Source of the DNA: Minisyncoccia bacterium
GTDB taxonomy: Bacteria; Patescibacteriota; Minisyncoccia; UBA6257; GWB1-50-10
NCBI GenBank assembly: GCA_049997815.1
Contig: JBEKVQ010000003.1
Coordinates: forward strand, 85 to 64,084
Length of the DNA: 64,000 nucleotides
Direction: 5' to 3'
Shown here: piece by piece, positions 3,246 through 64,000 of the stretch
Numbering within the stretch: the stretch's first letter is position 1
Layout of the letters: each line of letters begins with the position of its first letter
The notes under the pieces: model-generated
Seen by the model: the letters and a program-made list of their open reading frames with translations, nothing else
The model's database searches: none
Told to the model about the DNA's origin: nothing
Position numbers and translations under genes: made by a program

Positions 3246-3260
3246 GGAGGTACTAAGAGT

Positions 3261-4462: not shown

Positions 4463-4600
4463 TGTATTTACGGATCAGCTCGACCAGGCCAATCTGTATA
4501 TACTACGGATTGGCCGACAATTTTGTTGCATCCCCTACTGGTAAATAACTCCCCCGCTCCCATTCCCAAAAACCACCAGTCCTACATATAGGACTGGTGG

Positions 4601-4966: not shown

Positions 4967-4976
4967 AGTATTTAAA

Positions 4977-8440: not shown

Positions 8441-8441
8441 A

Positions 8442-10145: not shown

Positions 10146-10147
10146 TT

Positions 10148-10747
10148 TTATGATTTATTGAGTGTTATCAAGCCGTTCTCGCGGCTGGCCATGAAACCGA
10201 CGTATTTTTCCAAATCGGGCACCTTAACGCCCACATCTACAACCGGTTTAGAGAAGAATATCTTGGTCTTGAATCCAAGCGGAGTTATCTCTCCGGCAAA
10301 ACCTACCCCATCCAGATCGCCCGATAATATGAGCTTATTATGGCCTTTTACGGCAGAAAAGAGCGCTTTGGTGAGGATGGATTCGATATTCTTCACGAGA
10401 ACAACCCTGTCTTTAATGTCGGGAAGCGTTCGGAACGCTTTGAGGCAAAGTTCGGAATCCCCACTCTTCACTATTACGGTGCAAAAATCCGAGGCCTTTT
10501 CGATATCTTCCTCCCGCTCCAAATAGAAAACATCTTTCTCTTTTCCGGAACCGGAAATCTGCGTCATGAATTCTTCTCTTGCCATCGGGTAAGCCGTGAA
10601 GAAGAGGAGTTTTTTGCCGGCCAGAAACATCTGAACCGCGACGGTAACGGTGAAGAACGACGCCCCGGTCTTATGGGCGCCGTGGATCAAGAGCGGCAAG
10701 TCCGCCTCCGAAAAATGAAATTCCTTTTTATCCAAAAATATCTCCAT
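10148..10747 (-). CDS. hypothetical protein nested in the paralog array
   Basis: 199-aa ORF overlapping the GNAT gene by 1 nt, with a 2-nt gap to paralog 3. No confident motif (HGAHKTGAS is not a canonical P-loop). Confidence 0.45.
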   Translation of the reverse strand: MEIFLDKKEFHFSEADLPLLIHGAHKTGASFFTVTVAVQMFLAGKKLLFFTAYPMAREEFMTQISGSGKEKDVFYLEREEDIEKASDFCTVIVKSGDSELCLKAFRTLPDIKDRVVLVKNIESILTKALFSAVKGHNKLILSGDLDGVGFAGEITPLGFKTKIFFSKPVVDVGVKVPDLEKYVGFMASRENGLITLNKS

Positions 10748-11235
10748 TACAGTTCTTTTCTAAACACCCGCATCGGCTTCGAGCGGTCTTCCCCGGCATA
10801 AACCGTTCCCACATTCTTATATCCCATTTTCTCATAAAAACCGTACGAAGTATCGCGGTACCGCTCCGCGCTTCTTGCAAGAACCTCCGCATAACCTTCT
10901 TTTCTCGCTTCGTTTTCCAGAAAATCGACGAGCTTCTTCCCTATTCCCTTCCCTCGATATGCACCATCCACGTACAAAATTTTGAACTTTCCGGGCCGAC
11001 TTGTTTTCGCGAATGGCAGAACCTGAGGCAACGGGTCGCAAAGGCCGACAATCCCCACTGGCATGCCGGAATATCTCGCCACCCAATAGTGGGTGTTGAA
11101 CTCTATCTTTCTGGTAATTTCATCTTGAATGCGCTTTACGTATTTTTCAACCTCGGGATTGTCCGTCCACTGGGCCAGTATCTTCCTTATCTCTCCCAAA
11201 TCGCCTAGCTTCGGTTTGTCTATTATAATTTCCAT
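10747..11235 (-). CDS. GNAT family N-acetyltransferase
   Basis: 162 aa; acetyl-CoA-binding motif A (ILYVDGAYRGKGIGKKLVDFLENEARKEGY); typical GNAT length. Confidence 0.75.
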   Translation of the reverse strand: MEIIIDKPKLGDLGEIRKILAQWTDNPEVEKYVKRIQDEITRKIEFNTHYWVARYSGMPVGIVGLCDPLPQVLPFAKTSRPGKFKILYVDGAYRGKGIGKKLVDFLENEARKEGYAEVLARSAERYRDTSYGFYEKMGYKNVGTVYAGEDRSKPMRVFRKEL

Positions 11236-11238
11236 AAG

Positions 11239-19229: not shown

Positions 19230-20024
19230 CTATAGCGAAAAATCCAGTATTAAGGGAAGGTGGTCGGAGACCTCGACTTCCGGCAATTGAAACGAGCCGA
19301 CCTCAATATCCGGCGAGACGAACATATAATCCGAGATGCTATCCGGCACGGCTTCCCCTTTGTATCCTTCATAGTGGATCCGGCTACGCGTGGTTCTCAC
19401 ATTAAAATCCTTAATGAGATTTTTCATGGTGTGGCCCAGAACAGCGATGCTCTTTGTATCCGGATAAAGATTGAAATCGCCACAAAGAATTTTATGGCCG
19501 TCAACGCCATTAAGAAATTCTAAAATCTTTTTCGACTGCTCAAGGCGGGCCGCATTATCGTTCTTGGGCCAAGTTGCTATTCCATGGAAATCGCAGACGG
19601 TGAGGGATGCGCCTCCGACATCGAACGTCTTATATTGCAAGAGGCCAATTTTATGCGTCTCATCGCTTTTTATCTTGTAAAGGGAGCCATAAGCGAAAAA
19701 ACTTCCTTCTTCCTTAAGGCGAAGATTCTTTCTGTGGAAAATCGCGGTACCCAAAACGACTCCCGAAGCAGCCCCCCCGGTGAGCTTATCGAGAGAGACC
19801 ATCGGAGCAAAAGAACCGCTGAAATCCGGCAGTAATTCTTCCAACTCTCTCAGTAAAAAAAACCGAACACCAATTCCATCGTTATATACCTCTTCGGCCT
19901 TAAGCGCCTCTTGAAAGCAAAAGATGTCGGTCTCTGGTGACATATCTTCTATGAATTTTTTCAGAGCTTCAAACCTTTTTCCACACCAAATGTTCAGACA
20001 AATTAACTTCATTTGTGCCCCCAC
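19230..20024 (-). CDS. endonuclease/exonuclease/phosphatase (EEP) family protein
   Basis: 264 aa: LICLNIWCG N-terminus, FCFQEA, a C-terminal EVSDHLPLILDF catalytic motif. Confidence 0.75.
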   Translation of the reverse strand: MGAQMKLICLNIWCGKRFEALKKFIEDMSPETDIFCFQEALKAEEVYNDGIGVRFFLLRELEELLPDFSGSFAPMVSLDKLTGGAASGVVLGTAIFHRKNLRLKEEGSFFAYGSLYKIKSDETHKIGLLQYKTFDVGGASLTVCDFHGIATWPKNDNAARLEQSKKILEFLNGVDGHKILCGDFNLYPDTKSIAVLGHTMKNLIKDFNVRTTRSRIHYEGYKGEAVPDSISDYMFVSPDIEVGSFQLPEVEVSDHLPLILDFSL

Positions 20025-20097
20025 TAGGGATCGAACCTAGGACCCACTCCTTAAAAGGGAGGTGCTCTACCAACTGAGCTATGGGGGCAATTTATTT
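20025..20097 (-). tRNA. tRNA-Lys (anticodon UUU)
   Basis: Reverse complement: GCCCCCATAGCTCAGTTGGTAGAGCACCTCCCTTTTAAGGAGTGGGTCCTAGGTTCGATCCCTAGTGGGGGCA. Cloverleaf with anticodon loop CTTTTAA; CCA not encoded. Confidence 0.8.
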
Positions 20098-20098
20098 T

Positions 20099-20464
20099 TT
20101 AAGATTTGCGATCTTTCTGGATGATCTTCCAGTGATATATGAACAGCGGCGTTCCGATGATTATCATTGCGAGGGCATTTGAGGCGGTGCGCTCCCGGTC
20201 GCTCTCCCTTTGTTTTTCCTGGGCCGCCGCTTGGTCCGCGTTGTACTTCTCCTGGTCCACCGGGGTCATAACACTGCCTTTAACGTCGGCAGGCGCGACC
20301 AGAACGGGATAGGAGGGATACATTATCATTTGGTCGGCGTTCTTAAACACGAAGGCCTTCAACCCCAAGTCAACTAAGTTCACGAGTCCGATGACCACGA
20401 TCACCAACCCCACGAGCGAGAACAGATACAGATAGATTGTACGGATTAATTCCTTGCGTTCCAT
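20099..20464 (-). CDS. membrane protein, hypothetical
   Basis: 121 aa with N- and C-terminal TM helices. Confidence 0.35.
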   Translation of the reverse strand: MERKELIRTIYLYLFSLVGLVIVVIGLVNLVDLGLKAFVFKNADQMIMYPSYPVLVAPADVKGSVMTPVDQEKYNADQAAAQEKQRESDRERTASNALAMIIIGTPLFIYHWKIIQKDRKS

Positions 20465-20908: not shown

Positions 20909-21181
20909 TCCTCGGTAGCTCAGTGGTAGAGCGGCTCCCTGTCAGAAGGCAGCTTTCCGCCGAGAGGCGGTTTGAAAAATTTCGGGATAACGGTGAAGGC
21001 TAAATCTTAAAAAGATATGCGAACACCGTGGGAACCCGCCAAGATTCTTAAATTTAGGCGGGGCACCGTAGAGACTAGATACCGAAACACCTTTAATATG
21101 GTGATGATATAGTCCACCCCTTCAGGAAACTTTAGGATACGTGTAAGGAGATGGTCGTAGGTTCGAATCCTACCCGAGGAG
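20909..21181 (+). tRNA. tRNA-Asn (GUU) interrupted by a ~200-nt group I intron in the anticodon loop
   Basis: 5' exon TCCTCGGTAGCTCAGTGGTAGAGCGGCTCCCTGT; 3' exon TAAGGAGATGGTCGTAGGTTCGAATCCTACCCGAGGAG. U1:A72 and the G73 discriminator are typical of tRNA-Asn. The intron carries the P7-region motif GTAGAGACTAGA and follows a U at the 5' splice site, with a G before the 3' exon. Confidence 0.7.
20943..21143 (+). ncRNA. group I intron (self-splicing ribozyme candidate) within tRNA-Asn
   Basis: Inserted after anticodon position 35. Contains CACCGTAGAGACTAGATACCG, resembling the conserved core of tRNA-embedded (Azoarcus-type) group I introns; the last intron nucleotide is G. Confidence 0.6.
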
Positions 21182-51859: not shown

Positions 51860-52028
51860 CCCGTAAATTACTCGACCTTTATTATTAACGTGACTTTATT
51901 ATAGCAAAAACGGATTAAAACTGAAAGAATCGGGCTGGGGGGAAGCGAACGTCGCTCGCTTACGCTCGCTCTTTAAAAACCCTCGGTTTCTAAACGCTTC
52001 GACCCCGGCGTCGGAGCTATTTCCGACA

Positions 52029-52052
52029 CCCCTGCCTGTCGGCAGGCAGGGG
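52029..52052. repeat. GC-rich perfect hairpin CCCCTGCCTG-TCGG-CAGGCAGGGG (copy 1; related copy at 62523-62542)
   Basis: 10-bp perfect stem. The motif extends to ~47 nt of ~80% identity with 62521-62567 (...GGGGAAA...CGTT.TCCCGACCCC). Confidence 0.6.
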
Positions 52053-52099
52053 AAACCAAACGTTCTCCCGACCCCACACTCCAGTTTGCTTCCCTGGAC

Positions 52100-52450
52100 A
52101 CAAATTAAAACTGCCCAGCGTTATGTCGGGTAGTTTTAGTTTGTGGACCCTAGTAGACGACGTTAGAACTTTCTTCAAGGACAAACCCCTGGAGGACCTT
52201 CAGAAGTTCCTTCGTGCTCATGGTTTTCCGGAGGTTCGTGACGAGGAGGATAAAGAATCACCCGAAGGACATCGGCGAGCCGCGTGAACTGCTTCCGGGC
52301 CTCCTCCCGACTGATCTCTTCCCCGAATTCTTGCTTATAGAGCTCGATGTACCTATCGAGCGTCTTGTCACTAAGCTCCATAGTACCGCATGGTAACGTA
52401 CCGGTACAGGAAAGGAAGGTGGGAGAAAATGCCCTTCGAGGTAACTATTT
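52100..52450. repeat. direct repeat A (~330 bp, carries 68-aa gene A), left boundary of the defence cassette
   Basis: Aligns with 56085-56400 (repeat B) over its full length, and with 62630-62760 (repeat C) at both ends. Shared end motifs are CTAGT.CAGGATGTTCGAACTTTCTTCAAGG and CCGCATGGTA.CGTACCGGTAC.AGAAAGGAAGGTGGG. Confidence 0.7.
52175..52381 (-). CDS. 68-aa hypothetical protein, copy A (paralog at 56130-56336)
   Basis: MELSDKTLDRYIELYKQEFGEEISREEARKQFTRLADVLRVILYPPRHE...; its start codon lies 27 nt downstream, on the minus strand, of the GTACCGGTAC palindrome. Confidence 0.45.
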   Translation of the reverse strand: MELSDKTLDRYIELYKQEFGEEISREEARKQFTRLADVLRVILYPPRHEPPENHEHEGTSEGPPGVCP

Positions 52451-53567
52451 AGGCGATGGCTTCGCTTCTCGAAAACAAGATGTTCGCGTCAAACTCCATG
52501 CTTCCCTTGTGAGATTCATCAACCTCTCTGATGGTCTTGTATCCCAGGTAGTGTGTCACTTCATTCATCCTCAGTGCGACACCAGAAAATGACGGCCGCT
52601 TGAGTTCCTCGAATACCTTCCTCTTTTTGTCCTCCGGGGCCACGATAAACAAGGGGTAATTCGAATTCGGATTCTCGGCCCGCAGATCGGCCAAGCGAAG
52701 GATGCCAGAGTACACGGATGTGGTATTCTCGATTTCGAAGGCGGACTTGATTGAGTATGGTCCGAACTTCCAGACTACATCGATGTTTTTGATTGTCGGT
52801 GGAACATCCACCGTCTCGTGAAATTCAGGCAATACGAAATCTCTGAAGATATGCCCATCAAACTGTTTTCCTTGATCGTTCCGGGGCACCCAGATATCTA
52901 GGCGCGCCAGCTTGCCGAGCCGTATTAACCGCCACTGCATTTCGGTATGCTCGGTCGGAGCTCTTTCGATTTGGTCGTTGATATGCGCATGTTCAATTTC
53001 CCTTCTTTCAACAACCCGCATAAGTGGCTCTCCCTTCTCCAGGGTTTTCAAAACACCCAAGAGGTCGCCATAGTGACGAGCGAAGTCTACCACCGCATTC
53101 TCATTGATCATTGAAAAACCACGCGGAGCATAGGTCTCAGAGTAACCGAAGTAAGGATTGAGCTTGCTGAGCGGTACACTCACCTGCTCCTCATTCACAA
53201 TGAAATACATGAGTTCCCAGGTTTCTCCTTCCGGCGTCTCACGCCAGAAGTGTTTGGCGAGATCTTTACTTCTCACCTTCGCTGCTACTTCACCAACAAA
53301 TCGGATCCGGCTACGGTTGTAAATAAGTACAATATCGCCCGACTCCATCCTGTTCCACCGAGTCTCATTGAGAGGCCCGGGCACAGCGCCCCAAACAATG
53401 AAGGGTGAATCATGATAGATTTCCTCTAGATTCTTAATCTCTGAGACTGGAAGAAACTGGCGCACCTCATTCAGGTGTCGTTTGTGCTGGATTGTATCCT
53501 CAAAGTGTCGTTCTGCGGCGGTGTTTCCACCAGCGACAACAATGAAAACCTTTCGGACTCTATCCAT
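52449..53567 (-). CDS. putative modification-dependent restriction endonuclease (EVE/PUA-like N-domain fused to PD-(D/E)xK-like nuclease)
   Basis: Start taken at the internal ATG (MDRVRKVF). The N-terminal part (SPFIVWGAVPG...GDIVLIYNRSRIRFVGEVAAKV) resembles PUA-like/EVE modified-base readers. The C-terminal part (ARLDIWV...SIKSAFEIENTT) resembles a PD-(D/E)xK core. Overlaps the Mrr-like gene. Confidence 0.45.
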   Translation of the reverse strand: MDRVRKVFIVVAGGNTAAERHFEDTIQHKRHLNEVRQFLPVSEIKNLEEIYHDSPFIVWGAVPGPLNETRWNRMESGDIVLIYNRSRIRFVGEVAAKVRSKDLAKHFWRETPEGETWELMYFIVNEEQVSVPLSKLNPYFGYSETYAPRGFSMINENAVVDFARHYGDLLGVLKTLEKGEPLMRVVERREIEHAHINDQIERAPTEHTEMQWRLIRLGKLARLDIWVPRNDQGKQFDGHIFRDFVLPEFHETVDVPPTIKNIDVVWKFGPYSIKSAFEIENTTSVYSGILRLADLRAENPNSNYPLFIVAPEDKKRKVFEELKRPSFSGVALRMNEVTHYLGYKTIREVDESHKGSMEFDANILFSRSEAIA

Positions 53568-53572
53568 AGTTG

Positions 53573-54442
53573 CTATCCCCAGCTCTCGCCGAGGTATTTC
53601 AGGAGCATCCCACACAGTTCGTCTTTCGAAATCAAATCGGTATTGTTGGCCTGCGCCAAGGCGTGGGCTTCCGGCGTGAAAGTCATTGAGGTTGTGATAA
53701 CCATCGTCTTGCTACAATCATAGAATTTCATAGCTCCGACCACCTGCTGAACAGCCTCGTTGCCGACAGACCAGTCACGATAGCATTTAGCTTGAATGAG
53801 GATTCGCTCCCCTTCTCTGTTCGCGATCAAATCTCCTCCTTGGTCGCCGGAACGACCGATGTGCTCAACTTTGTAGCCCATCGCTTCAAAGAGCCGGTAC
53901 AGCAATTTCTCAAAATCGGTTCCGGACAGATACGCGAACCTCTGTGGCTCTTTCTTTATACTCTCCCGGGTGAGACTCTCCTCCTTCCCTTGAACATAAT
54001 ATTGAAGCAGGTCAAAAACGTCCCTATCGTCCGAGGTGACGCCGGCCTCTCCCAATATCTTCTTCAGGTCGTTTATTCTGTCCCAGTCAAAGTAGTGGTT
54101 CCGCACGTGATACCTGTCGGCGCTGGCTTTCTCCAGACCCCAGCGGCTGATGAAGTTCTTAAGATAATCCTCCCTTCCTGATTTCTTTAGATTTTCGAGC
54201 ACCCATTCGAAATGTCTCCCTGCTTTCTGGCGCCTGGCTATTTTCAAGAAGATGACTAAGGCCGCAATCACGACGATCGCTACCACCATATAAATCATGA
54301 TGCGCCAAAATCCTGCACGGTCTGTGAACCACAATCCGAAAAGATAGAGAAAACCAATCACAAGGATGAGCGTGAGGAGACGTTCGACGATATCCTCTAA
54401 AGAATCGCTTTTTCTGTAGTATCTCCGATGACGTTTAGCCAT
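53573..54442 (-). CDS. membrane-anchored Mrr-type restriction endonuclease domain protein
   Basis: Two N-terminal TM helices. C-terminal Mrr_cat pattern FEKLLYRLFEAMGYKVEHIGRSGDQGGDLIANREGERILIQAKCYRD...QQVVGAMKFYDCSKTMVITTSMTFTPEA. Confidence 0.65.
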   Translation of the reverse strand: MAKRHRRYYRKSDSLEDIVERLLTLILVIGFLYLFGLWFTDRAGFWRIMIYMVVAIVVIAALVIFLKIARRQKAGRHFEWVLENLKKSGREDYLKNFISRWGLEKASADRYHVRNHYFDWDRINDLKKILGEAGVTSDDRDVFDLLQYYVQGKEESLTRESIKKEPQRFAYLSGTDFEKLLYRLFEAMGYKVEHIGRSGDQGGDLIANREGERILIQAKCYRDWSVGNEAVQQVVGAMKFYDCSKTMVITTSMTFTPEAHALAQANNTDLISKDELCGMLLKYLGESWG

Positions 54443-54545
54443 GATTTGATTTTAGCACCTTTGTTGAGAATTGCCCTCGAAAGAGAATGCACAGAGGGAG
54501 TGGGGAAAGTTGCTTAGACGGCGCTCCACCTAATTTGAGTGTCCA

Positions 54546-55067
54546 CTATTGAATATCTCTCATCAATCGAGGTAATTCACTCGGAAAGGATTTGGCACGA
54601 TCGGATAAAAAGTAGATCTGTTTGTAATATTTTATTACCCGGTCCCGCATCTCTTTGTCACACGTCAATATTTTCGCATTTAGACTTAGTCCCTCTGTCG
54701 CAATATAGAAATCTGCACCCTTGAGTTGACTTATTCTCAGCCTTGAAAAGCTCTTGTGCTTTTCGATTAACTTCTTAGTCGTTAGCTTCTTCTCCTCGAA
54801 ATAATGAATTGTCTCTAAAAACGAATTTAGGATTTTGTAGCATTTGCTGAAAGCGATTCTCTGTCTCCGCAAAGCAGACAAGGTCTCCATATAAACCAGA
54901 ATTGGGATATAGAACGCTGGTCGGTATGGTAATATTGCCCCTAGCGATGATTCAACAGAAACATGATTTCTGTCCTTACTATTCAGTTTTGCTAGCAACC
55001 AAGAGGAATCTGGAACAACCCTGAGTTCTTCTTTCTTCTTTTTAATCTTTTTCTTCGTGTTAGCCAT
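54546..55067 (-). CDS. PIN-domain nuclease
   Basis: 173 aa with the four acidic residues in PIN order (VVPDSS, YMETLS, GADFYIA, TCDKEM); overlaps the ClpP-like gene by 8 nt. Confidence 0.5.
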   Translation of the reverse strand: MANTKKKIKKKKEELRVVPDSSWLLAKLNSKDRNHVSVESSLGAILPYRPAFYIPILVYMETLSALRRQRIAFSKCYKILNSFLETIHYFEEKKLTTKKLIEKHKSFSRLRISQLKGADFYIATEGLSLNAKILTCDKEMRDRVIKYYKQIYFLSDRAKSFPSELPRLMRDIQ

Positions 55068-55638
55068 TACCTATGCTGATTATATCGGCGCCAGCTGGAA
55101 TGTTTGGCTCTACTATGTCAGAAATAAACTTCTTGTCCCTTGCCTGCTCGGCATTCAGTATCACACCCCCATCAATCATCAAACTCTCAACTTCTTTAAA
55201 GGCCATCCCTGAGTAAGTACTTATGGCTTTTGCTATGTTTTCTTTTGACCTTACAGATCCCTCATAAAATTCTTTTAGTTGCGATTCAACATAGTTTGCG
55301 GACTGCAACATCGTTGCGATGCCGTGGAACATAAATGAGGCGTCTCTGCTTCCGATTCTCTCTTTGCCGCTCGCGAAGATTGCAGTCGCGACTGAATCAA
55401 CCTGTCCTATGTTGTGCATAATCGTTTTCATAGGGAGAGCGTTGATGTAAGCCGCCAGGTTTAATCCCTCAAAAACATTGCCACCACCCGAAGAAATAAG
55501 AAAGTAAAGTTCCTCATACTTCTCGTTTATGCATGTGGTAATTACCTGCCTTAACTTAGCTGACTGTGCAGTTTGAACATCAGCGGTGAAAACAATGTAT
55601 TTGATCTTCGCCATATATTTTTTACCTGCAAAAATCAT
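55060..55638 (-). CDS. ClpP-like (S14/crotonase-fold) serine peptidase
   Basis: 192 aa. LYFLISSGGGNVFEGLNLAAYINALPMKTIMHNIGQVDSVATAIFASG parallels the ClpP segment IYLYINSPGGSV..GLAIYDTMQ...GQAASMG. Confidence 0.5.
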   Translation of the reverse strand: MIFAGKKYMAKIKYIVFTADVQTAQSAKLRQVITTCINEKYEELYFLISSGGGNVFEGLNLAAYINALPMKTIMHNIGQVDSVATAIFASGKERIGSRDASFMFHGIATMLQSANYVESQLKEFYEGSVRSKENIAKAISTYSGMAFKEVESLMIDGGVILNAEQARDKKFISDIVEPNIPAGADIISIGNG

Positions 55639-55667
55639 ACAACAAAAACGCCTCTCCAGTAAGGGGG

Positions 55668-55946
55668 TTAGATTACCTCCTCTTGGATGGCCTTTGATAA
55701 ATCAGCGAATAGGACTTCGATCGGGGTTTGATAAAGGGCCGAGAGGCGGATGATGCTCACAAGATTCGGCAATGCGTCTCCATTTTCCCAGTGAGAGATC
55801 CATGTCTTATCTTTGAAACCAAGAGCTCTGGCAACCTGCAGTTGGGTCAGCCCTCTCTCCTTCCGATATCGCTTGAGAGCGTTCGGGATCTTCTTATAGC
55901 GGTCGTACTCCATGATTGGATGGTAGCCAGGGAATCTCCTTGCCAT
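55668..55946 (-). CDS. XRE-family helix-turn-helix transcriptional regulator
   Basis: 92 aa; LKRYRKERGLTQLQVARALGFKDKTWISHWENG is a classic Cro/C1-type HTH. Confidence 0.75.
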   Translation of the reverse strand: MARRFPGYHPIMEYDRYKKIPNALKRYRKERGLTQLQVARALGFKDKTWISHWENGDALPNLVSIIRLSALYQTPIEVLFADLSKAIQEEVI

Positions 55947-56084
55947 AAGGAGGGTAAAATTGCCACAAAGGGAAACTTTTTACAGTAGTTGGGGATAGTT
56001 ACCGCGGGGATCCCTAGACCACAAGAGGTTCGATTCTCCTTGGGTCGGCAAAATCAAGAACCCTCATGTTCTCAGGGTTGTGGG

Positions 56085-56400
56085 AGTACTCAACGTTGTG
56101 GAGGCTAGTCCAGGATGTTCGAACTTTCTTCAAGGACAAGCCTCTGAAGGATCTCCAGAAGTTCCTTCGTGCTCATGGTCTTCCGGAGATTCGTGACGAT
56201 GAGGATACAGAATCACCTGAAGAACATCGGCGAGTCGCGTGATCTGCTTCCGGGCCTCATCCCTACTTATCTCCTCCTTGAACTCCTCTTTGTAGAGCCT
56301 GATGTATTCATCAAGCTTCTCGTCGCTCAGCTCCATAGTACCGCATGGTAGCGTACCGGTACCAGAAAGGAAGGTGGGGAAAATTGCCCTTAGGGGGAAG
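56085..56400. repeat. direct repeat B (carries 68-aa gene B)
   Basis: See repeat A; about 80% nucleotide identity. Confidence 0.7.
56130..56336 (-). CDS. 68-aa hypothetical protein, copy B
   Basis: MELSDEKLDEYIRLYKEEFKEEISRDEARKQITRLADVLQVILYPHRHE..., about 80% identical to copy A; the same GTACCGGTAC palindrome lies upstream. Confidence 0.45.
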   Translation of the reverse strand: MELSDEKLDEYIRLYKEEFKEEISRDEARKQITRLADVLQVILYPHRHESPEDHEHEGTSGDPSEACP

Positions 56401-56454
56401 CTAACCCATCTACGCTCTTGAAGGAGCTTATGTTTAAGGTATAGTTTTCATGCG

Positions 56455-57081
56455 ATGAGTAAAGAAGAATACGAGAAATTACTTAAAGAAGTTGACACAC
56501 GACTTGCTGAAATTGTGGACGAAATGTCCGCGGCAATTGGAACCCTTAAAAATGATGAGCGTTTTGTCAGAACAAGACTGCTCATAGCGTTTTCGTTTTC
56601 GGAAATAGTCTGCAATCTATACAACGCATACTTCAATCTCGGCCTAGCCAACCGTCAACTAATGGAAAAATGGTTCAAAGAATATTGTTTAACAGACAAA
56701 AACCCTACCTACAAAAAACACCATTACTTGGGAATGGTGGACGAGGCGTTTATGTATAAATTTAGGTGTGCAATCGTTCATACTTTCGGTCTGCCTGAGC
56801 CGGAAAACGGAGTTTCAATCACCGTACCGAATGGTATAGAAACTAGCGAGGTAATAAAGAAAATGGACGAAGGGTTTTCAAAACGCGGTCACAAGGTAGC
56901 TTTTATATCCGCTGATAGCTTGACCCAACTTTTCATAGACGGATTTACTCTTATGCATCCAGAGGTATTTAAGAAAGTCGAGGTGGCTACCCAGCCTGAT
57001 TTCGACGGACTAGAAAGAATCTCCAAGGAGTTTGAGAGACGTGGCGCGAGAGGCGTCCCACTCGATGGCCGTTCGGCCTAA
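56455..57081 (+). CDS. hypothetical protein
   Basis: 208-aa ORF divergent from 68-aa copy B; no recognisable motif. Confidence 0.4.
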   Translation: MSKEEYEKLLKEVDTRLAEIVDEMSAAIGTLKNDERFVRTRLLIAFSFSEIVCNLYNAYFNLGLANRQLMEKWFKEYCLTDKNPTYKKHHYLGMVDEAFMYKFRCAIVHTFGLPEPENGVSITVPNGIETSEVIKKMDEGFSKRGHKVAFISADSLTQLFIDGFTLMHPEVFKKVEVATQPDFDGLERISKEFERRGARGVPLDGRSA

Positions 57082-57500
57082 AGGAGTGAAAGTCCAAATA
57101 GCACTACACCTATAACGAGAGTTACATACAAAATTTCTGGCCACCAGTCGGCCTCAAAATCTTTTCCTTCAGAACGACTACTCCAATCTAACGATGGGAG
57201 GTCTTTTATCTTTTGAGTAATAGCAGCTATGTCGTCTCGCAGTAGAAAAAGATGGCGACCGAGGCTAACGAGAGCGGTAGAAGCTAAGAGCAAAAACGAT
57301 AGTAAAGCCAAGTGTTCGTTCTTGATAAGTTCACTCCTAACAGCAAGAGACACACCGACGACAGCGAAACTAATAGAACTGATTGTAGTTAGGGATTGAT
57401 ATCTAAGAAGTATAAGTTGATATAAGACGTCAATCTTTTTCCCAAGGGAAAATTTTTTTGCCCCGTTTATATTATCCAAACTATCGTCAAGGTTTTTCAT
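57078..57500 (-). CDS. membrane protein, hypothetical
   Basis: 140 aa with about three TM helices. Confidence 0.35.
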   Translation of the reverse strand: MKNLDDSLDNINGAKKFSLGKKIDVLYQLILLRYQSLTTISSISFAVVGVSLAVRSELIKNEHLALLSFLLLASTALVSLGRHLFLLRDDIAAITQKIKDLPSLDWSSRSEGKDFEADWWPEILYVTLVIGVVLFGLSLL

Positions 57501-57515
57501 TCAAAAAATCTTTCG

Positions 57516-58382
57516 CTAAAGAAATACAGAAATTGCGACATGCCACATTCCTCTTTGGATACCGTTCGTCCCCATCGTCCAGATACTGTAATCAACAACA
57601 CACCATCTCAACATATGAAGCTGCTGCCATTCCACGAGTGCCTTTTTTAGTTTCTGTGCCGTTTCTTTATTCATATTTTTTTCAGAGAGCAAATCAATGA
57701 AGAAGGTAATTATTGCTGATTGTGCCAGTTTTAAATCATCGAGAAAACCGACCTGTTTATTACCAGTTGAGTCATATTCAAAATCGTGTGTCCCATCCTC
57801 AATCTTCTTTAGTATTTCCCATATAGCGACCCCGCTTATTTCATTTTTTGTGAGTGAATCTACGGTTCCTCGAATAAAGTTATCGTAATTGTTTGAGATG
57901 CTTCCAAGGAGGTAATCATATCGTTCTTCAAATTCTTCAAATTTCGTGTGGATTTCTTTTTCGGGGAACTGAATCGGGGTTTTCTCTAAATGTTCACTTA
58001 TGATTTTCTCCCTATCTTTTATAGCAAGATTCAATGAATTAACTATTTCAATTTCATCATTTTTAGTGATAGTTTTCTTGTCTAAATCGTTTGGGTCAGG
58101 TTCGTATTTAGAGATGAAATTATCCATCATGCAATCTCCGACCGTAATTTGTCGCCTCTGATTTCGAGTGCCTACATATACACTGAAAACACGCCCTACG
58201 TTAATATCTTGCTTCATTAGATACCAAAAACTCCTTTCGTTTCTGATACTATCGATAATGTTTTGGACTCTCTCTCGCCAGATTCTATCAAAAAGACCAC
58301 GAGCAATAAAACGGGCGAGAATAAAAATTAGGATAAGAATAATTATGTCCATGATTTTTGATTGTACAACAAAAACGCCCAT
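57516..58382 (-). CDS. membrane-anchored hypothetical protein
   Basis: 288 aa: N-terminal TM helix and an acidic helical body; followed by a terminator hairpin at 58368-58400. Confidence 0.4.
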   Translation of the reverse strand: MGVFVVQSKIMDIIILILIFILARFIARGLFDRIWRERVQNIIDSIRNERSFWYLMKQDINVGRVFSVYVGTRNQRRQITVGDCMMDNFISKYEPDPNDLDKKTITKNDEIEIVNSLNLAIKDREKIISEHLEKTPIQFPEKEIHTKFEEFEERYDYLLGSISNNYDNFIRGTVDSLTKNEISGVAIWEILKKIEDGTHDFEYDSTGNKQVGFLDDLKLAQSAIITFFIDLLSEKNMNKETAQKLKKALVEWQQLHMLRWCVVDYSIWTMGTNGIQRGMWHVAISVFL

Positions 58383-58410
58383 CTAGTAATGTGGGCGTTT
58401 TAGCCTGGCA

Positions 58411-58530
58411 GTTCCTAAAGGTTCGATTTCCCTTAGGGTGGATTGACGAAAAATAAAAATCCCACTGTTATAGTGGTGATTTTTATTTCTCTACCTACAG
58501 ATTCGAGATGTAGCGTATATGAACATCTTG
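58411..58530. repeat. conserved ~120-bp tRNA-downstream element, copy 1 (copy 2 at 63810-63923)
   Basis: Near-identical to 63810-63923: GGTTCGATTTC.C.TAG.GTG.ATTGACGAAAAATAAAAATCCCACTGTT.TAGTGGTGATTTTTATTTCT.TACCTAC.GATTCGAGATGTAGCGTATATGAACATCT. Includes a T-loop-like start and a bidirectional terminator hairpin. Confidence 0.65.
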
Positions 58531-58601
58531 TGGACCTGGGGGGAATCGAACCCCCGCCTCAGCAATGCGAATGCCGTGTAATGCCACTTTACTACAGGCC
58601 C
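58531..58601 (-). tRNA. tRNA-Ala (anticodon CGC)
   Basis: Reverse complement GGGCCTGTAGTAAAGTGGCATTACACGGCATTCGCATTGCTGAGGCGGGGGTTCGATTCCCCCCAGGTCCA; G3-U70 pair; anticodon loop TTCGCAT. Confidence 0.75.
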
Positions 58602-58610
58602 ATTTGATAT

Positions 58611-59285
58611 TTAAACTTTCAAAATCCTGGCGATTTCCTTGGATTTCCTAACAATCACCTCATTCCCCTCCTTCAACTCGATACTTTCCAGTTGGTTATC
58701 AGCATACACAAGAGCCGGGCCGCGCGCAATTTTTATCCTTATCTCCGAATTTTCACTCAATACCAAATGGTCCGACTGCTCGGTGCTGTTATTGAACGCC
58801 ACGCCGATGCCCACCTCAAAAAAGCTGTCTGTGATCGAGCGATAATATCCTGTTGAGCCGAGTGGCGTTGCAATCACCACACCGTCCCCTATAATCTCAC
58901 CCCCAACCTGGCGACCGTTTATAAGGATCTCGTAGCGGATGGCGTGCCGCGGGTCGCCGTTATGGACAACGATATCGTTCAATCCGCGCAATTTTTTTCC
59001 TTTGGCGCTTGATTCCAATTTCGTCAGCTCTTCAATTTTATACCGGCCGGATTTTACTCTGGTTAGAATCTCATCGTTCGGCAAGTCGGCACATAGTTTA
59101 CAGATGCGACTTCCCTTCAGAACCAGTTTCGGAATACCCGGATATTCAAACTCGGCGTGCATCAGCGTACCGTCACCTCCGTAACTTACAACAACGTCGG
59201 GATTGCTCGCGACGATCTCAAAACCCAACTTCCCAAGAAGCTCGCCGATGCCTTCGGTTTCCTTTCCGAAAATAAGGGCTTTCAT
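58611..59285 (-). CDS. nadK: NAD kinase
   Basis: 224 aa with GGDGT motif (VVVSYGGDGTLMHA). Confidence 0.85.
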   Translation of the reverse strand: MKALIFGKETEGIGELLGKLGFEIVASNPDVVVSYGGDGTLMHAEFEYPGIPKLVLKGSRICKLCADLPNDEILTRVKSGRYKIEELTKLESSAKGKKLRGLNDIVVHNGDPRHAIRYEILINGRQVGGEIIGDGVVIATPLGSTGYYRSITDSFFEVGIGVAFNNSTEQSDHLVLSENSEIRIKIARGPALVYADNQLESIELKEGNEVIVRKSKEIARILKV

Positions 59286-59359
59286 TTGGTCGGGGCGCCG
59301 AGAATCGAACTCGGTCTACACGCACCCGAAGCGTGCGTACTACCGGCATACTCCGCCCC
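59286..59359 (-). tRNA. tRNA-Pro (anticodon CGG), CCA encoded
   Basis: Reverse complement CGGGGCGGAGTATGCCGGTAGTACGCACGCTTCGGGTGCGTGTAGACCGAGTTCGATTCTCGGCGCCCCGACCA; anticodon loop TTCGGGT. Confidence 0.8.
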
Positions 59360-59413
59360 GATGGTGTTTATAGATTACCGCAAACCACAGCGGGGGTAAA
59401 TCCCCCATCCTGC

Positions 59414-59842
59414 CTATTGCTTACCGGCACTCTTCTTCCGTTGGTGCATTTTTTTGGACTTCTGCGTTAGGGCAAAAATCGAGAGCACCATAATATAATC
59501 TGCGATGGCTTCGGAAGAAACCTTGTGGCTGCCATTCATGATAGCGGAGAGGATTATAAGACCGAAGATTACAACAGTCCAAGCGATCACGAAAATCTCG
59601 CCAGGGTGGCGACTTTCGTGAATATCGTACCAGCGGTCGAATTCCTTAGTCCCGACGTAAAGCCCTAGAATACCAACGTAAATCACGCTCGCGGGAGCGA
59701 TCAAAAAATCGAACCGATTGTCCATGAAAAAATTCATTATCAGGAAAGCTATGAACATCACGGTCCAGAAATTGGTCAGCACCCGCCAGATCTTTTCGTC
59801 CCTGAAAGAAAATAAATCTTTCATAAAGACATTATGACACAT
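59414..59842 (-). CDS. membrane protein, hypothetical
   Basis: 142 aa with four TM helices. Confidence 0.4.
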   Translation of the reverse strand: MCHNVFMKDLFSFRDEKIWRVLTNFWTVMFIAFLIMNFFMDNRFDFLIAPASVIYVGILGLYVGTKEFDRWYDIHESRHPGEIFVIAWTVVIFGLIILSAIMNGSHKVSSEAIADYIMVLSIFALTQKSKKMHQRKKSAGKQ

Positions 59843-59941
59843 AATACTTTTTCTTTCACCCCGTTAAAAATCTCGCCCGCGCGCAAGCGCGCCCCGCGAG
59901 GGGCCTGGGGGCGGGCTATTTCTGACGGGGTCAATTTCTTC

Positions 59942-61405
59942 TTACTTAACGAAGTATTTCTTTTTCATGCTCTCCTCCGCATCTGATTCAAATTCCTCCT
60001 TGGTCTCCCTCGCCTTCTCGGCCAATTCCCCCAAAACCTTATCTGAAAGCCCGCCCAAATCTTTCACCCGCTTTTCGAGATAAAATCTCTCGTTCTTTTT
60101 CGGGTCATCCAGCACTTCTTCTAAAAGGACTCCAAGAATTTTTCCGATTTTCGGCCCCGGCTTCAACTTCAGAATATCCATCACGTCCTCGCCGCGCACC
60201 TTGAGCATTTTCGGATGAATCGGGTCGTGCTTCACCTTTTCTATCATGAAAAGCAGATGGCGAAGCTTATAGGGGAAGGCTTTCGGCACGTTGGAACCGA
60301 TGCGGTCCGCTTCGCGAACTTTCATTATATCGTCAACGTACTCCAGTCCCACCCGCGCAAGGAAACGCCGTACCCCCGCCGGGCTCACCTCGCCGACGCT
60401 GTAATAAAACATATGGTAGCGAATGAGGCGAATAACCCGTTCAGCGACCTCCTTTGAAAACCGGAGACGGTCAAGAATTTTGACCACCATCCGCGCGCCA
60501 GCCACCTCGTGACCATGAAAAGTTGAATCGGGTCCTTCTCCGCGTTTCGCCCGCGGCTTCCCGATATCGTGGAAAAGGGAGGCTAGACGGACCTCGAGAG
60601 AATAATTTTTCTCCGCCGCGTAATTCAAGGCCCGGACGTTATGGTCGAAAACCGTGTAGATGTGATGCCTATTTTGAGTGCAACCGATGCCCTCCCGCAA
60701 TTCGGGGACGACGTATTTCAGAAGTCCCGTATCCTCGAGAAGGATTATTCCCTCCGCCGCCCGCGGCGCCATGATTATCTTCATGAATTCGTCCCGAATG
60801 CGCTCTTTGGCGATAACTTCAAGCAATCCCGCTCGGTCTTTTATCGCCTCAAGCGTGGGGTGGTCTATCTCAAATCCCAATTCCACCGCAAATCGCACGG
60901 CGCGCATCAGCCGGAGTGCGTCTTCTTTGAAGCGCTTCCCGGGCTCCCCCACCGTCCGGATAATTTTCGTCTTCAGATCCACTTGGCCACCATAAGGGTC
61001 GATTATCTCTTTTTTCTTTTGGCCAAGGTCGAGCGCGAGGGCATTCACCGTGAAATCCCGGCGGGCCAGGTCGTCTTCTATCGTCTTCGCGAACTTCACA
61101 CTGTCGGGATGGCGCTTGTCGCTATATCTCCCCTCCAGACGGAATGTGGTTATCTCGACTATTTTCAGCTTCTCATCCTTGGAATCGGTTTTCACGCCCA
61201 CCGTCCCGAACTCGTTTTCGTAAACGCTCTCGGGGAAAATCTTTTGGATATCCGCCGGCTTTGCGTCCGTCGCGATGTCCCAGTCCTTCGGCTCCCGCTT
61301 CAGAAAGAGGTCACGCACGCAGCCGCCCACCAAATATGCTTGATGGCTATTTTCGAGAAGTGCTTTGGCGATTTGTTTTATCTCTTTCGGTACCTTGAGT
61401 TCCAT
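59942..61405 (-). CDS. cca: CCA-adding tRNA nucleotidyltransferase with HD domain
   Basis: 487 aa; GGCVRDLFL polymerase-beta-type NTase motif; HD phosphohydrolase domain (HDIGK). Confidence 0.9.
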   Translation of the reverse strand: MELKVPKEIKQIAKALLENSHQAYLVGGCVRDLFLKREPKDWDIATDAKPADIQKIFPESVYENEFGTVGVKTDSKDEKLKIVEITTFRLEGRYSDKRHPDSVKFAKTIEDDLARRDFTVNALALDLGQKKKEIIDPYGGQVDLKTKIIRTVGEPGKRFKEDALRLMRAVRFAVELGFEIDHPTLEAIKDRAGLLEVIAKERIRDEFMKIIMAPRAAEGIILLEDTGLLKYVVPELREGIGCTQNRHHIYTVFDHNVRALNYAAEKNYSLEVRLASLFHDIGKPRAKRGEGPDSTFHGHEVAGARMVVKILDRLRFSKEVAERVIRLIRYHMFYYSVGEVSPAGVRRFLARVGLEYVDDIMKVREADRIGSNVPKAFPYKLRHLLFMIEKVKHDPIHPKMLKVRGEDVMDILKLKPGPKIGKILGVLLEEVLDDPKKNERFYLEKRVKDLGGLSDKVLGELAEKARETKEEFESDAEESMKKKYFVK

Positions 61406-61464
61406 ATTCCTATTCTATCGTCATTTTGAAAATAACGAAAATAGTTCTAGAATCAGATGGAAAT

Positions 61465-61541
61465 GCCCCTGTAGCTCAATTGGATAGAGCGCTTGGCTTC
61501 GAACCAAGAGGTTGTGGGTTCAATTCCTGCCGGGGGCACCA
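61465..61541 (+). tRNA. tRNA-Arg (anticodon UCG), CCA encoded
   Basis: GCCCCTGTAGCTCAATTGGATAGAGCGCTTGGCTTCGAACCAAGAGGTTGTGGGTTCAATTCCTGCCGGGGGCACCA; anticodon loop CTTCGAA. Confidence 0.8.
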
Positions 61542-62407
61542 TGCATACTATTGGCGTTCTCTGCGCACTCGGCGCCCTCGCTTCATGGGGGGTGGGGGAT
61601 TTTTTGATACAGCGGAGCGCGCGCAAATTCGGCGACACCATAGCGCTTTTCTACATCACGGCTTTCGGCGCCGTCATCCTTTTACCGTTCATATGGAATG
61701 AGATCATCGCAACCGTTTCGAACGCCTACTCACTTTCCATTCTCCTCATTACAAGCGGCGTTATCCTTTTTGCCGCGCTTTTCGATTTTGAGGCGCTCCG
61801 CGTCGGGAAGATTTCCGTAATTGAGCCCGTTTATGCGTTCGAGGTATTAATTACAACTATGCTCGCTTCATTCATCATCCGGGAAGAGCCTAGTTTAATT
61901 CAATTCATTCTTATTGCGGGACTACTCGCCGGCATCTTCCTCGTCTCAACGAGGTCGTTTCACCACCTGAAATTACTCCATCTTGAGAGAGGGGTGCCGC
62001 AAGCCATACTTGCAACCGCAGGCATGGGATTCGTGAACTTCCTGTTCGGCGTGGGCGCGCGCGAGACGAACCCGATAATGATAAACTGGTTCACGAACCT
62101 GTTCCTTGCTGTCGTCATGCTCGGCTACATTCTCTTCCGCTCAAAGTGGAAGGAGATGGTTGAGGATTGGAAAAAGAACAAGGAACTCATCACGAGCGTG
62201 AGCTTTTTCGACAACCTCGCCTGGGTTTTCTACGCCTACGGCACCACCTACATTCCCATCGCCATCACGACCACCATCAGCGAGGGATACATCGCGTTCG
62301 CGGCGGCATTAGGGCTAGTGTTCAATAAAGAAAAACTTCAGTCCCACCAGTATTTCGGAATGGTGCTGGCGATAGGGAGCGTCATCATCCTTTCGGCGAT
62401 AACATAA
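61541..62407 (+). CDS. EamA/DMT-family transporter
   Basis: Start taken at the ATG overlapping the tRNA CCA end (MHTIGVL...); ten TM helices in an EamA-like duplicated arrangement; terminator hairpin at 62411-62440. Confidence 0.55.
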   Translation: MHTIGVLCALGALASWGVGDFLIQRSARKFGDTIALFYITAFGAVILLPFIWNEIIATVSNAYSLSILLITSGVILFAALFDFEALRVGKISVIEPVYAFEVLITTMLASFIIREEPSLIQFILIAGLLAGIFLVSTRSFHHLKLLHLERGVPQAILATAGMGFVNFLFGVGARETNPIMINWFTNLFLAVVMLGYILFRSKWKEMVEDWKKNKELITSVSFFDNLAWVFYAYGTTYIPIAITTTISEGYIAFAAALGLVFNKEKLQSHQYFGMVLAIGSVIILSAIT

Positions 62408-62629
62408 AAACAAAAAAACCGGGCGGATCCGGTTTTTTCGTTATTGTGCCCCCAGAGGAATCGAACGTCGCTTCGCTCCCTGACACCTTGCGGTTTCAGT
62501 GCTTCCACCACGCCTGCCTGCCGGCAGGCAGGGGAAAACTCCCGTTTTCCCGACCCCTTTCCCGTTCGAATCCTGAATACAAAAATAAAAACAACCAAGG
62601 TAAACTCGGTTGTTTTTATTTTGTGCACT

Positions 62630-62760
62630 CTAGTACAGGATGTTCGAACTTTTTTTAGGGAGAAGGCCCAGGGAGAGAACCTCGAACTCATCTGTCATGC
62701 TGCTTAGTATAGAGGATGGGATTCCGCAGGGGAAGGTGGGAGAAAATGACGGAAAGGACA
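62630..62760. repeat. repeat C: internally deleted solo copy of repeats A/B (no 68-aa gene)
   Basis: Keeps the left end CTAGTACAGGATGTTCGAACTTTTTTTAGGG and the right end CCGCAGGGGAAGGTGGGAGAAAATG, but lacks the ~200 bp in between. Confidence 0.55.
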
Positions 62761-62858
62761 AAAAAATAAATGGGTTCACAGAAATGTGAACCCATTGTTT
62801 CTCAATGATATTTTACAGATTACTGAATGAACTGTCTGTATGCCTCAGACCCACGCAG

Positions 62859-63620
62859 TCAGTAAGGACAAACGATGTGAAGCGGCGCTTGGCCGAGTTC
62901 TTCAACGTAACTAAGGGATTCCTCGGAAAATGGGACAATAAGATCAGCTATTATTTTCAGATCGTTCTCATCTGATTGTTCCAAGTTGGCGATAAGGAAT
63001 CTATTATGCGACTTGAACAAGAAATAGGTAAAACCGGGATGTGGCCGAAGTTTGTGACGATACTTCTTCGCAAAATTTATTATCTGATGTTGGGTAAAGC
63101 AAAGTTCGTCCAGATTCGGGTTTATTGACCTTAAAATCTGCTCAATCGTACCAGCTTTCACTTGTTCACAAACGATAACCGGCCTCTCTCCCGTCGGTTT
63201 ACCAGGTTCGTTGGCACCCAGCTCAGGATCTTCCAGTGTTCCGACATGAGGAGGATCAAAGAAGAATCGAGGACTAACGGAAGCAAATAGTTTGTCCATA
63301 TGGTCCATATTTGCGAACGTTTGCGAACCATCGACACCGTCGATTACCATTTTACCCTCTTTCCAAAGAGGTTTCGCATATTCATTGGATTTAGGATTTG
63401 GTGGTCCTAACTTGGGCGCGTAATTCACCATATCGGAAAGCATTATTGACACCAAATTGGTGATACCTTGACCGTTATTCTTCACGGCATTAATAACGCT
63501 TTCTGGTGAGAGATTGGTTTTTTCAACCGCGTCCGGTATTGCTTTGACGAACACAGACTGGATCTGCGCTACTTGCTGGTGTGTCCATTCTTCTTTTCGG
63601 GGTGTTCCATGATTTTTCAT
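62859..63620 (-). CDS. hypothetical protein
   Basis: 253-aa ORF; no recognisable motif. Confidence 0.4.
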   Translation of the reverse strand: MKNHGTPRKEEWTHQQVAQIQSVFVKAIPDAVEKTNLSPESVINAVKNNGQGITNLVSIMLSDMVNYAPKLGPPNPKSNEYAKPLWKEGKMVIDGVDGSQTFANMDHMDKLFASVSPRFFFDPPHVGTLEDPELGANEPGKPTGERPVIVCEQVKAGTIEQILRSINPNLDELCFTQHQIINFAKKYRHKLRPHPGFTYFLFKSHNRFLIANLEQSDENDLKIIADLIVPFSEESLSYVEELGQAPLHIVCPY

Positions 63621-63923
63621 GGGGGTTCCCTTTCATTTCTAGTTAGTGATGGGTTTTGAGTTTGTTAAGATGCTATTCCTGATTTTCAGGAACGCTGCGA
63701 TTTTACCACATCGTAAATTGTATGTCAATAATGGTGATCTAAACCTGTAGGCGCTTATCACACAACAAGAATATCCACTTAGTAAGGTGGTCGTTTTAAC
63801 CTGGAAGTTACCGAAGGTTCGATTTCTCCTAGAGTGTATTGACGAAAAATAAAAATCCCACTGTTGTAGTGGTGATTTTTATTTCTATACCTACGGATTC
63901 GAGATGTAGCGTATATGAACATC

Positions 63924-63999
63924 TGGTGCCCCCAGTAGGATTCGAACCTACGACCTTCTCCTTAAGAGGGAGCAGCTCTACCAACTGAGCTATAGGGGC
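63924..63999 (-). tRNA. tRNA-Lys (anticodon CUU), CCA encoded
   Basis: Reverse complement GCCCCTATAGCTCAGTTGGTAGAGCTGCTCCCTCTTAAGGAGAAGGTCGTAGGTTCGAATCCTACTGGGGGCACCA; its body is nearly identical to the 3' half of the intron-containing tRNA-Asn. Confidence 0.75.
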
Positions 64000-64000
64000 T

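Follow-up and report, generated by a model that had tools for sequence, protein, structure and literature searches.

We analysed a 64,000-nt stretch of DNA from a Minisyncoccia bacterium (contig JBEKVQ010000003.1), referred to below as the window, in which a strain-variable island abuts the 3' end of the tRNA-Ala(cgc) gene (58530-58601, minus strand). The island contains two repeats in direct orientation, A (52141-52444) and B (56096-56399), which align without gaps over 304 nt with 83.6% identity (BLAST within the window, E 6.6e-91). A preliminary description of the same DNA had recognised this pair, with limits that were slightly too wide (52100-52450 and 56085-56400), and had taken A and B for the ends of a defence cassette. 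Our analysis makes it very probable that 52141-58536 is one composite island, in which an outer element, comprising A and five defence-like genes, is joined at an older junction to an inner element, comprising B and three unknown genes.

Each repeat contains an open reading frame (ORF) of 68 codons on the minus strand (52175-52381 in A; 56130-56336 in B, protein P0001), and the two small proteins share 75% identity. The conserved domain is encoded by codons 1-46 (52244-52381 in A), whereas the last 22 codons are antisense to a second, plus-strand ORF. The palindrome GTACCGGTAC occurs just twice in the 64 kb, at 52398-52407 and 56353-56362, with its distal edge 26 nt upstream of the ATG of each small gene; both copies sit in one duplicated segment and are not independent occurrences. 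Next to it in A lies a purine-rich motif, GGAAAGGAAGGTGGGAGAAAATGCCC (52409-52444, plus strand), which is present too in B, in a third module, C, and at L010, L029, L033 and L022 (L numbers denote loci in other contigs). Similar sequences stand ahead of the operon of the small gene and a large serine recombinase (LSR) in L022 and L005. Module C (62621-62761, plus strand) resembles A and B at its two ends only: the left end (62621-62665) is 82% identical to A and 82% identical to B, and the right end (62731-62748) matches A at 18 of 18 positions and is extended by a match that spans 62733-62761.

Two features had been overlooked. The plus strands of A, B and C share a conserved ORF that reads LW/LC-TLV(D/Q)DVRTFF..., and a second repeat of 165 nt, 85% identical between its copies (58366-58529 and 63762-63923), begins exactly at the 3' ends of the tRNA-Ala and tRNA-Lys genes. 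Existing gene calls (JGI sample 3300038451, contig Ga0427963_0000070) treat the repeats inconsistently, with two plus-strand ORFs of 54 and 58 amino acids in copy A (52123-52396) and the minus-strand ORF of 68 amino acids in copy B.

Just outside the island, a host hairpin identified by folding (52100-52140, minus strand) represents the native sequence directly downstream of tRNA-Ala in insert-free strains, where the empty-site contig L039 reads ...gtagttttagt TTGTGGACC tgggggg.... The island opens with the attL core (52141-52149), which is the left copy of a 9-bp direct repeat, TTGTGGACC, and antisense to the tRNA-Ala 3' end. The core is followed by the P' arm (52150-52287), which at the same time holds the plus-strand ORF of A, an orphan LSR tail (TLVDDVRTFFKDKPLE...AA and a stop codon). 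The five cargo genes of the outer element, all on the minus strand (52449-55946), encode an NmeDI_C-like restriction endonuclease (52449-53615), a membrane-anchored Mrr_cat nuclease (53573-54442), a PIN protein (54546-55067), a ClpP-like protein (55060-55638) and an XRE helix-turn-helix (HTH) protein (55668-55946), the last of which has a homologue among the element genes of L022 and a similar gene in L017. These assignments are domain-level matches only, and no named defence system is established.

The inner element begins at a degenerate core, TTGTGGAGG (56096-56104), which matches the tRNA-Ala core at 7 of 9 positions and would be a junction from an earlier integration or accretion. It contains orphan LSR tail B (RLVQDVRTFFKDKPLK...; 56105-56242, plus strand), the small gene and palindrome of B, and three ORFs (56455-58382) of 208 (plus strand), 140 and 288 amino acids (both minus strand), none of them with a Pfam hit. 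The right-end module (repeat D2, 58366-58527) closes the island; its last 30 nt (58498-58527) form a putative P arm, and it is followed by the attR core TTGTGGACC (58528-58536), which overlaps the 3' end of the tRNA-Ala gene.

Comparison with sister strains defines the mobile unit. Window positions 52150-58536 (6,387 bp) are absent from contigs of four other samples: L036/L039 (JGI 3300038425), L040 (ENA ERZ27250144), L041 (SRR13021855) and L042 (JGI 3300018005). The flanks of L039, L036 and L041 are 100% identical to the window from 64000 to 58528 and from 52149 to 44224, those of L042 are 99.7-99.8% identical, and L040 is 100% identical over the flank 58528-64000 and 98.0% identical over the other. 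The insert has a lower G+C content than the flank (44.6% vs 50.4%). It is bounded by perfect copies of the 9-bp repeat TTGTGGACC, and the three junctions form a matching triad: the empty site, attB, reads gtagttttagt TTGTGGACC tggggggaatcgaac (in short form, GTAGTTTTAGT-TTGTGGACC-TGGGGGGAATCG), attL at A reads gtagttttagt TTGTGGACC ctagtagacgacgttagaac, and attR at tRNA-Ala reads gtatatgaacatc TTGTGGACC tggggggaatcgaac. The island is thus present or absent precisely, at a defined site, as expected of a site-specific integrative element. Its insertion regenerates the target, in that tRNA-Ala (58530-58601) is called as a complete gene, as is tRNA-Lys (63924-63999) beside the other copy of the 165-nt repeat.

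Because the insert-free contigs lack 52150-58536, A is the left end of the island and B an internal, older junction. The variable unit is A-to-tRNA-Ala and not A-to-B, with the 165-nt repeat as its right end. The proposal that the repeats mark a recombination-mediated insertion consequently holds for the insertion itself; it does not hold for A and B as cassette ends, since B is internal to the 6,387-bp unit. Nor do B and C flank a second cassette, as had been suggested: the segment 58528-64000, with nadK, cca and tRNA genes, is backbone, and it is 100% identical in insert-free strains. As sister strains with identical flanks lack the whole island, it has moved recently, although it has no recombinase of its own.

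The plus-strand ORF provides the link to a recombinase family. Intact LSRs in L005, L013, L022, L027 and L056 end natively with the motif LV-DVRTFF, which is contiguous with the recombinase there; the motif also ends LSR gene fragments in L024 (truncated by the contig end) and L011 (a pseudogene). Tail A is 91.8% identical at the nucleotide level to the 3' end of the L013 LSR gene over 49 nt, and the P' arm and tail together show 82-92% nucleotide identity both with intact LSR genes at their 3' ends and with the orphan tail that a complete element, L004, carries. Between A and B, the ratio of non-synonymous to synonymous substitution rates (dN/dS) of the tail frame is 0.32 over 52150-52287. 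By this homology, the plus-strand ORF of A, B and C is the C-terminal tail of an LSR, orphaned from the rest of its gene.

A DNA-pattern scan of metagenomes recovered 23 loci with a matching tail, and about 19 of them are orphan tails that lack an LSR body; a word-indexed protein search for the tail found almost nothing. Nine loci have a minus-strand tRNA gene downstream of the tail, at a distance of 0.4-2.7 kb in six of them. All nine, as well as L004, have directly 5' of CTAGT a stretch of 5-9 nt that corresponds, exactly or nearly, to the antisense of the 3' end of the respective tRNA. L004 is particularly informative, as it is a complete integrated element in which an orphan tail (at 3234) is followed by cargo, the small gene and an LSR that abuts tRNA-Tyr. 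Joining its ends in silico restores an LSR of 535 amino acids ending in ...ILC-RLVDDVRTFFLENIDKYDKE. The 3' end of the LSR gene overlaps the opposite-strand tRNA gene in L004, L007 and L008. Because the joined ends of L004 restore the LSR and the tails are homologous to LSR 3' ends, attP probably lies within the C-terminal coding region of the LSR and mimics a tRNA 3' end, so that integration parts the tail from the body. In all likelihood, the modules A, B and C represent conserved left ends, on the attL side, of LSR-type integrative elements that target the extreme 3' end of tRNA genes. Plain paralogous duplication was rejected as the origin of the repeats, as each end of the module has homologues among the element ends of unrelated contigs.

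Two loci show related arrangements. Upstream of tRNA-Leu, L017 (metagenome contig VFSW01008432.1, approximately 1366-14250) carries three small genes on one strand and, on the other, five tail-like motifs (DVRTFF); its cargo includes an HTH regulator and an NYN-like protein, and it is a larger version of the array in the window. In L062 (5001-5511), a small gene converges on an orphan ORF of 116 amino acids that is homologous to the C-terminus of the L060 LSR (ALDR(F/I)RTLYN...DDLP..A), which represents the same junction of orphan tail and small gene in a different LSR subfamily.

Module C belongs to another element. We are confident that 62621-63923 is a second, fixed element of 1.3 kb at tRNA-Lys(ctt) (63924-63999, minus strand), with C as its left end. 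Module C has its own core (TTGTGCACT), a tail (TLVQDVRTFFREKAQGENLELICHAA and a stop codon) and the purine-rich motif, and it lacks the small gene; the rest of the element consists of an ORF of 253 amino acids (62859-63620) and the second copy of the right-end module (63762-63923), both on the minus strand. An empty site was sought among the sampled contigs and none was found, and every long contig has element C. C had been interpreted as a solo or deleted version of A and B. A similar module of approximately 140 nt without the small gene is conserved in L030 (89.6% identity) and L033 (84.6%), and also in L029, L010 and L017, and C is therefore a natural variant without the small gene rather than a private deletion.

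L030 also provides a second case of precise presence and absence. Its flanks are 99.2% and 100% identical to window positions 19896-20022 and 20014-20125, and at its tRNA-Lys(ttt) gene sits an LSR-less element of 2.63 kb whose left end is of the C type and which is bounded by a 9-nt repeat. The corresponding site in the window (tRNA-Lys(ttt), 20014-20088, minus strand) is unoccupied. Several contigs of this population (L041, L042 and L048-L050) end near window positions 62556-62664, inside or just ahead of module C, and it appears that metagenome assemblies are interrupted by the repeated end modules.

No recombinase was detected in the insert or in the 64-kb window using Pfam, PADLOC, the precomputed JGI Pfam hits or tblastn with six LSRs. 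The islands of the window are thus not autonomous elements with an LSR of their own, as their relatives L004, L022 and L056 are. They have the properties of cis-mobilisable elements, being bounded by attachment sites and devoid of recombination and transfer genes. They do not resemble integron cassettes, which are characterised by an attC hairpin site, an IntI tyrosine recombinase and attI with a Pc promoter: there is no tyrosine recombinase, and the sites are linear tRNA-like sequences that encode an LSR tail. The right-end modules at tRNA-Ala and tRNA-Lys do not differ in the 30 nt adjoining the core, and over the remainder they are about 85% identical. The frame upstream of the core is open for just 16 codons (...YMNILW). 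The short frame and the 30-nt identity would fit a retained P arm or a remnant of the 3' end of a deleted LSR gene. As the LSR-less right end is common to the fixed element at tRNA-Lys, this architecture predates the insertion at tRNA-Ala. The lack of a local recombinase and the greater age of the LSR-less architecture lead us to infer that the island was mobilised in trans, most likely by an LSR.

The small gene was found to have relatives well beyond the window. A word-indexed protein search retrieved almost nothing, and the family surfaced only with an exhaustive HMMER search, which yielded 184 cluster representatives at E≤1e-3. These proteins have approximately 45-130 amino acids and match over residues 1-47 only, where their consensus is M.lSDE.IdEFi.iYKeEFGEEISr.EA....RLvnLlrvI..P; beyond it, the tails vary. 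For codons 1-46, the comparison of A with B gives a dN/dS of 0.17. In codons 47-68 there are no synonymous and seven non-synonymous differences, and the plus-strand frame is better conserved there (0.32-0.37). The small ORF is a real gene under purifying selection, and its conservation at the protein level, the lack of which the preliminary description had named as a refutation, is thereby established.

A search for the gene in other contigs, proposed there as a check, located the homologous family next to site-specific recombinases. An LSR with Resolvase, Recombinase and Zn_ribbon_recom domains is encoded within 4.5 kb of a family member in six of seven GTDB loci and in two of five further loci; counting distinct loci, about 8 of 11 place the small gene no more than 5 kb from an LSR, and frequently the two genes overlap or adjoin, as would be expected of a directionality factor encoded with its recombinase. 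Two arrangements are seen. The small gene is located immediately upstream of the LSR and codirectional with it in L004, L005, L022 and L056, with a 4-nt overlap in L022 and a 6-nt gap in L005. In L006, L022 and L060, the small gene converges on the LSR gene and overlaps its 3' end. In L022, an intact LSR that retains its tail occurs together with a small gene convergent on it and with a gene homologous to the HTH gene of the window.

In the AlphaFold2 model (mean predicted local distance difference test score 84), residues 5-19 and 25-43 form the two helices of a hairpin, and the tail is disordered. An HTH fold, which the preliminary description had envisaged for binding of the palindrome, was not predicted: the model has two helices instead of three, no HTH profile matched, and the small protein has no match in Pfam, PHROG, PDB profiles or Foldseek. 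A scan of viral contigs for the protein found nothing. The palindrome GTACCGGTAC is absent upstream of the homologous genes and is private to the A/B duplicate. The notion of a regulator or directionality factor thus survives in part, as the linkage to recombinases keeps a role in directionality possible, and loses its proposed operator. Most likely, the small protein is an accessory factor of the LSR that affects directionality or expression; this is the weakest step of our explanation.

From these observations we propose the following mechanism. In autonomous relatives, attP would lie within the last 25-45 codons of the LSR gene, with a right arm that mimics the antisense of the tRNA acceptor and T-arm and at the same time encodes ...W(C)-TLV-DVRTFF.... 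Integration would leave the LSR body beside the tRNA gene, and the orphan tail would come to lie at the opposite end, fused to the tRNA 3' end that the element displaces; a small helical-hairpin gene often converges on this tail. The elements in the window have both attachment arms and no recombinase, and most likely their insertion or excision is carried out by an LSR supplied in trans; the core of B (TTGTGGAGG) would be the trace of an earlier accretion event. The predicted junction of the attP circle is ...GTATATGAACATC TTGTGGACC CTAGTAGACGACG..., and the cognate LSR gene is expected to end in ...ILW/LWC-TLVDDVRTFF, preceded by something like GATGTAGCGTATATGAACATC.

Two other accounts of the island have to be considered. 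The preliminary description proposed that A and B bracket a 3.6-kb defence cassette that is gained, lost or exchanged by recombination between them, and that the 68-residue protein binds GTACCGGTAC as a regulator or directionality factor. The length, similarity and direct orientation of A and B, the perfect conservation of the palindrome between them and the linkage of the small-protein family to recombinases are all as this model would have it. It is nevertheless very improbable in the light of the population data, since five further population samples were found (six with that of the window); in four of the five the entire 6,387 bp is missing, and in none is the A-B interval alone missing. 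The variable unit ends at the 9-bp core of A on one side and at the tRNA-Ala core on the other rather than at B, and the predicted hairpin without an HTH and the missing palindrome upstream of homologous genes speak against the proposed DNA binding. Alternatively, the islands may have arrived with an LSR that was later deleted, so that the insert-free strains are ancestral and nothing moves today. The abundance of tail loci without an LSR body (about 19 of 23), the heterogeneous right ends of LSR-less elements and the approximately 16 codons of LSR-like frame left beside the core would all be explained in this way. We nonetheless regard such dead remnants as unlikely: with flanks 100% identical over 13.4 kb between occupied and empty sites, insertion and loss of the LSR would both have to be extremely recent, the LSR-less right end, including the 30 identical nucleotides by the core, is shared with the fixed tRNA-Lys element, and a second LSR-less element is polymorphic at tRNA-Lys(ttt).

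For the small protein, a further possibility is that it acts not on the recombinase but as a partner or anti-repressor of the XRE HTH regulator, or that it is other small regulatory or antitoxin-like cargo. This proposal accommodates P0116, in which a family member is fused to an N-terminal XRE HTH domain, and the presence of XRE HTH genes in the neighbourhood of the small gene in the window, L022 and L017. We consider it a minority option, because the tight coupling is to the LSR, as judged from the 4-nt overlap in L022, the 6-nt gap in L005 and the convergent overlap of the 3' ends in L006 and L060, and because at L004, L005 and L056 the small gene accompanies an LSR and no HTH gene was seen next to it.

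Mobilisation in trans with the small protein as an accessory factor, which we favour over these accounts, also has several observations weighing against it. No LSR able to act on these sites was found in approximately 66 kb of the 258-kb contig. At other loci, the right ends of LSR-less elements have no common P-arm motif, and many of these elements may therefore be decayed and immobile. To our knowledge, canonical LSRs do not recombine attR-like sites, and tandem junctions such as B are not accounted for. No known directionality factor resembles the small protein, and the small genes have no recognisable sigma-70 promoter in either upstream region and no obvious ribosome-binding site. Finally, the host-side flanks of A and C have a 55-nt palindromic repeat in common, which the integration model does not predict. 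The two copies of this repeat (52021-52075 and 62503-62557; 84% identical and the only ones in the window) are centred on the palindrome CCCCTGCCTG(C/T)CGGCAGGCAGGGG and are each found in host sequence, a short way beyond the left end of an island (A or C), downstream of the positions of tRNA-Ala and tRNA-Lys before insertion. When the flanks of A and C were scanned with Rfam at permissive thresholds, only noise was returned, with no hit for the 55-nt repeat. A tRNA or tmRNA gene in the repeat and its surroundings was considered and dropped, since relaxed ARAGORN runs gave low-score, intron-containing calls only.

The closest described system appears to be the family of genomic islands at ssrA in Dehalococcoides, and the islands in the window may be seen as a variation of the known accretion of islands at tRNA and tmRNA genes. 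The integrase of the ssrA islands, DsiB, is a CcrB-like serine recombinase, and islands without an integration module have been read as cis-mobilisable elements formed by accretion (McMurdie et al., 2011, PMC3146451). Shared features are the tandem build-up at the 3' end of a tRNA-like gene, the short direct repeats of that end, the insertion point in the T-loop and acceptor region, an LSR integrase and the lack of an integration module in some islands (PMC3146451). In contrast, the elements here use ordinary tRNA genes (Ala, Lys and others) of Patescibacteria as targets instead of ssrA, the core has 9 bp rather than 20 bp, and there is no second small serine recombinase (DsiA). Also different are the location of the attachment site, within the 3' coding end of the LSR gene, and the companion, an unrelated helical-hairpin domain of 46 residues. 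The tycheposons of Prochlorococcus likewise form tRNA-side islands by repeated integrations that push older elements inward, with partial tRNAs at old junctions and adaptive or defensive cargo that varies between strains, and 910 of 937 use tyrosine recombinases (Hackl et al., bioRxiv 10.1101/2020.12.28.424599). Unlike these, the elements described here are of the serine-recombinase type, are much smaller (1.3-6.4 kb) and mostly have no integrase.

The SCCmec and psi-SCC elements are integrated serially at the 3' end of a conserved gene, rlmH, by the CcrAB serine recombinases (see also the discussion in PMC3146451). The elements of these arrays, some of which have no recombinase genes, are separated by short repeats of the integration-site sequence. 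They differ from the elements here in target gene, host phylum and recombinase subfamily, and their attachment sites are not inside the recombinase gene. For an attachment site in the C-terminal codons of an LSR, the closest parallel is probably the partition of the tyrosine integrase gene by SSV1-type elements. In SSV1-type archaeal integrases and in the integration-dependent immunity of mycobacteriophages, attP lies within a gene that integration splits or alters at its 3' end; both systems use tyrosine recombinases, and the split gene in the immunity systems is the repressor. Here, just the last 25-45 codons of a serine recombinase gene would be exchanged. The small directionality factors of serine integrases, such as TP901-1 Orf7, SPbeta SprB and phiRv1 Xis, resemble the small protein in size (approximately 45-90 amino acids) and in being encoded in the same element as an LSR, although no similarity in sequence or fold was detected.

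A full-text literature search found no description of such elements in Candidate Phyla Radiation (CPR) bacteria. CPR bacteria, or Patescibacteria, have very small genomes. Recombinase-less islands of 1.3-6.4 kb vary between strains with 100% identical flanks, and one variable island carries defence-type nuclease, PIN and protease genes. What sets these elements apart is the CPR host together with their extremely small size, the putative attP that acts as a tRNA mimic in the C-terminal codons of the LSR, and the uncharacterised companion family of small proteins. We tentatively speculate that Patescibacteria may carry a so far undescribed three-part system, consisting of an LSR with attP as a tRNA mimic in its own C-terminal codons, a new 46-residue hairpin directionality factor whose gene spans the site, and recombinase-less defence-type cassettes that retain just both site arms and are shuffled in trans. 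If so, integration would swap the C-terminal tail of the LSR, providing a switch dependent on the integration state, and cassettes would be moved between tRNA genes in an integron-like manner, but by a serine recombinase. Serine integrases and their directionality factors are genome-engineering tools, and a new set of integrase, site and factor would have practical value; attB, attP, attL and attR have been fully reconstructed, LSRs of the cognate type are available from related loci, and the small-protein family is a candidate accessory or directionality factor.

Several minor features were noted along the way. Two T-arm-like hairpins, one at the right end of the outer element (55985-56055, plus strand) and one within the 165-nt right-end module (58437-58470, plus strand), present GGTTCGATTC between stems of 7-8 bp with an A-C mismatch; they appear to be mutually related, and ARAGORN calls neither of them a tRNA. 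The contig of L040/L046 (ENA ERZ27250144, k141_98660) is a perfect inverted duplication centred on the MscS-like gene by the empty tRNA-Ala site, which is most likely an assembly artefact. Approximately 840 nt from the empty tRNA-Lys(ttt) site, between two short ORFs, Rfam reports a group I intron match (20929-21136, plus strand) with a score of 50.8 bits against a gathering score of 50.

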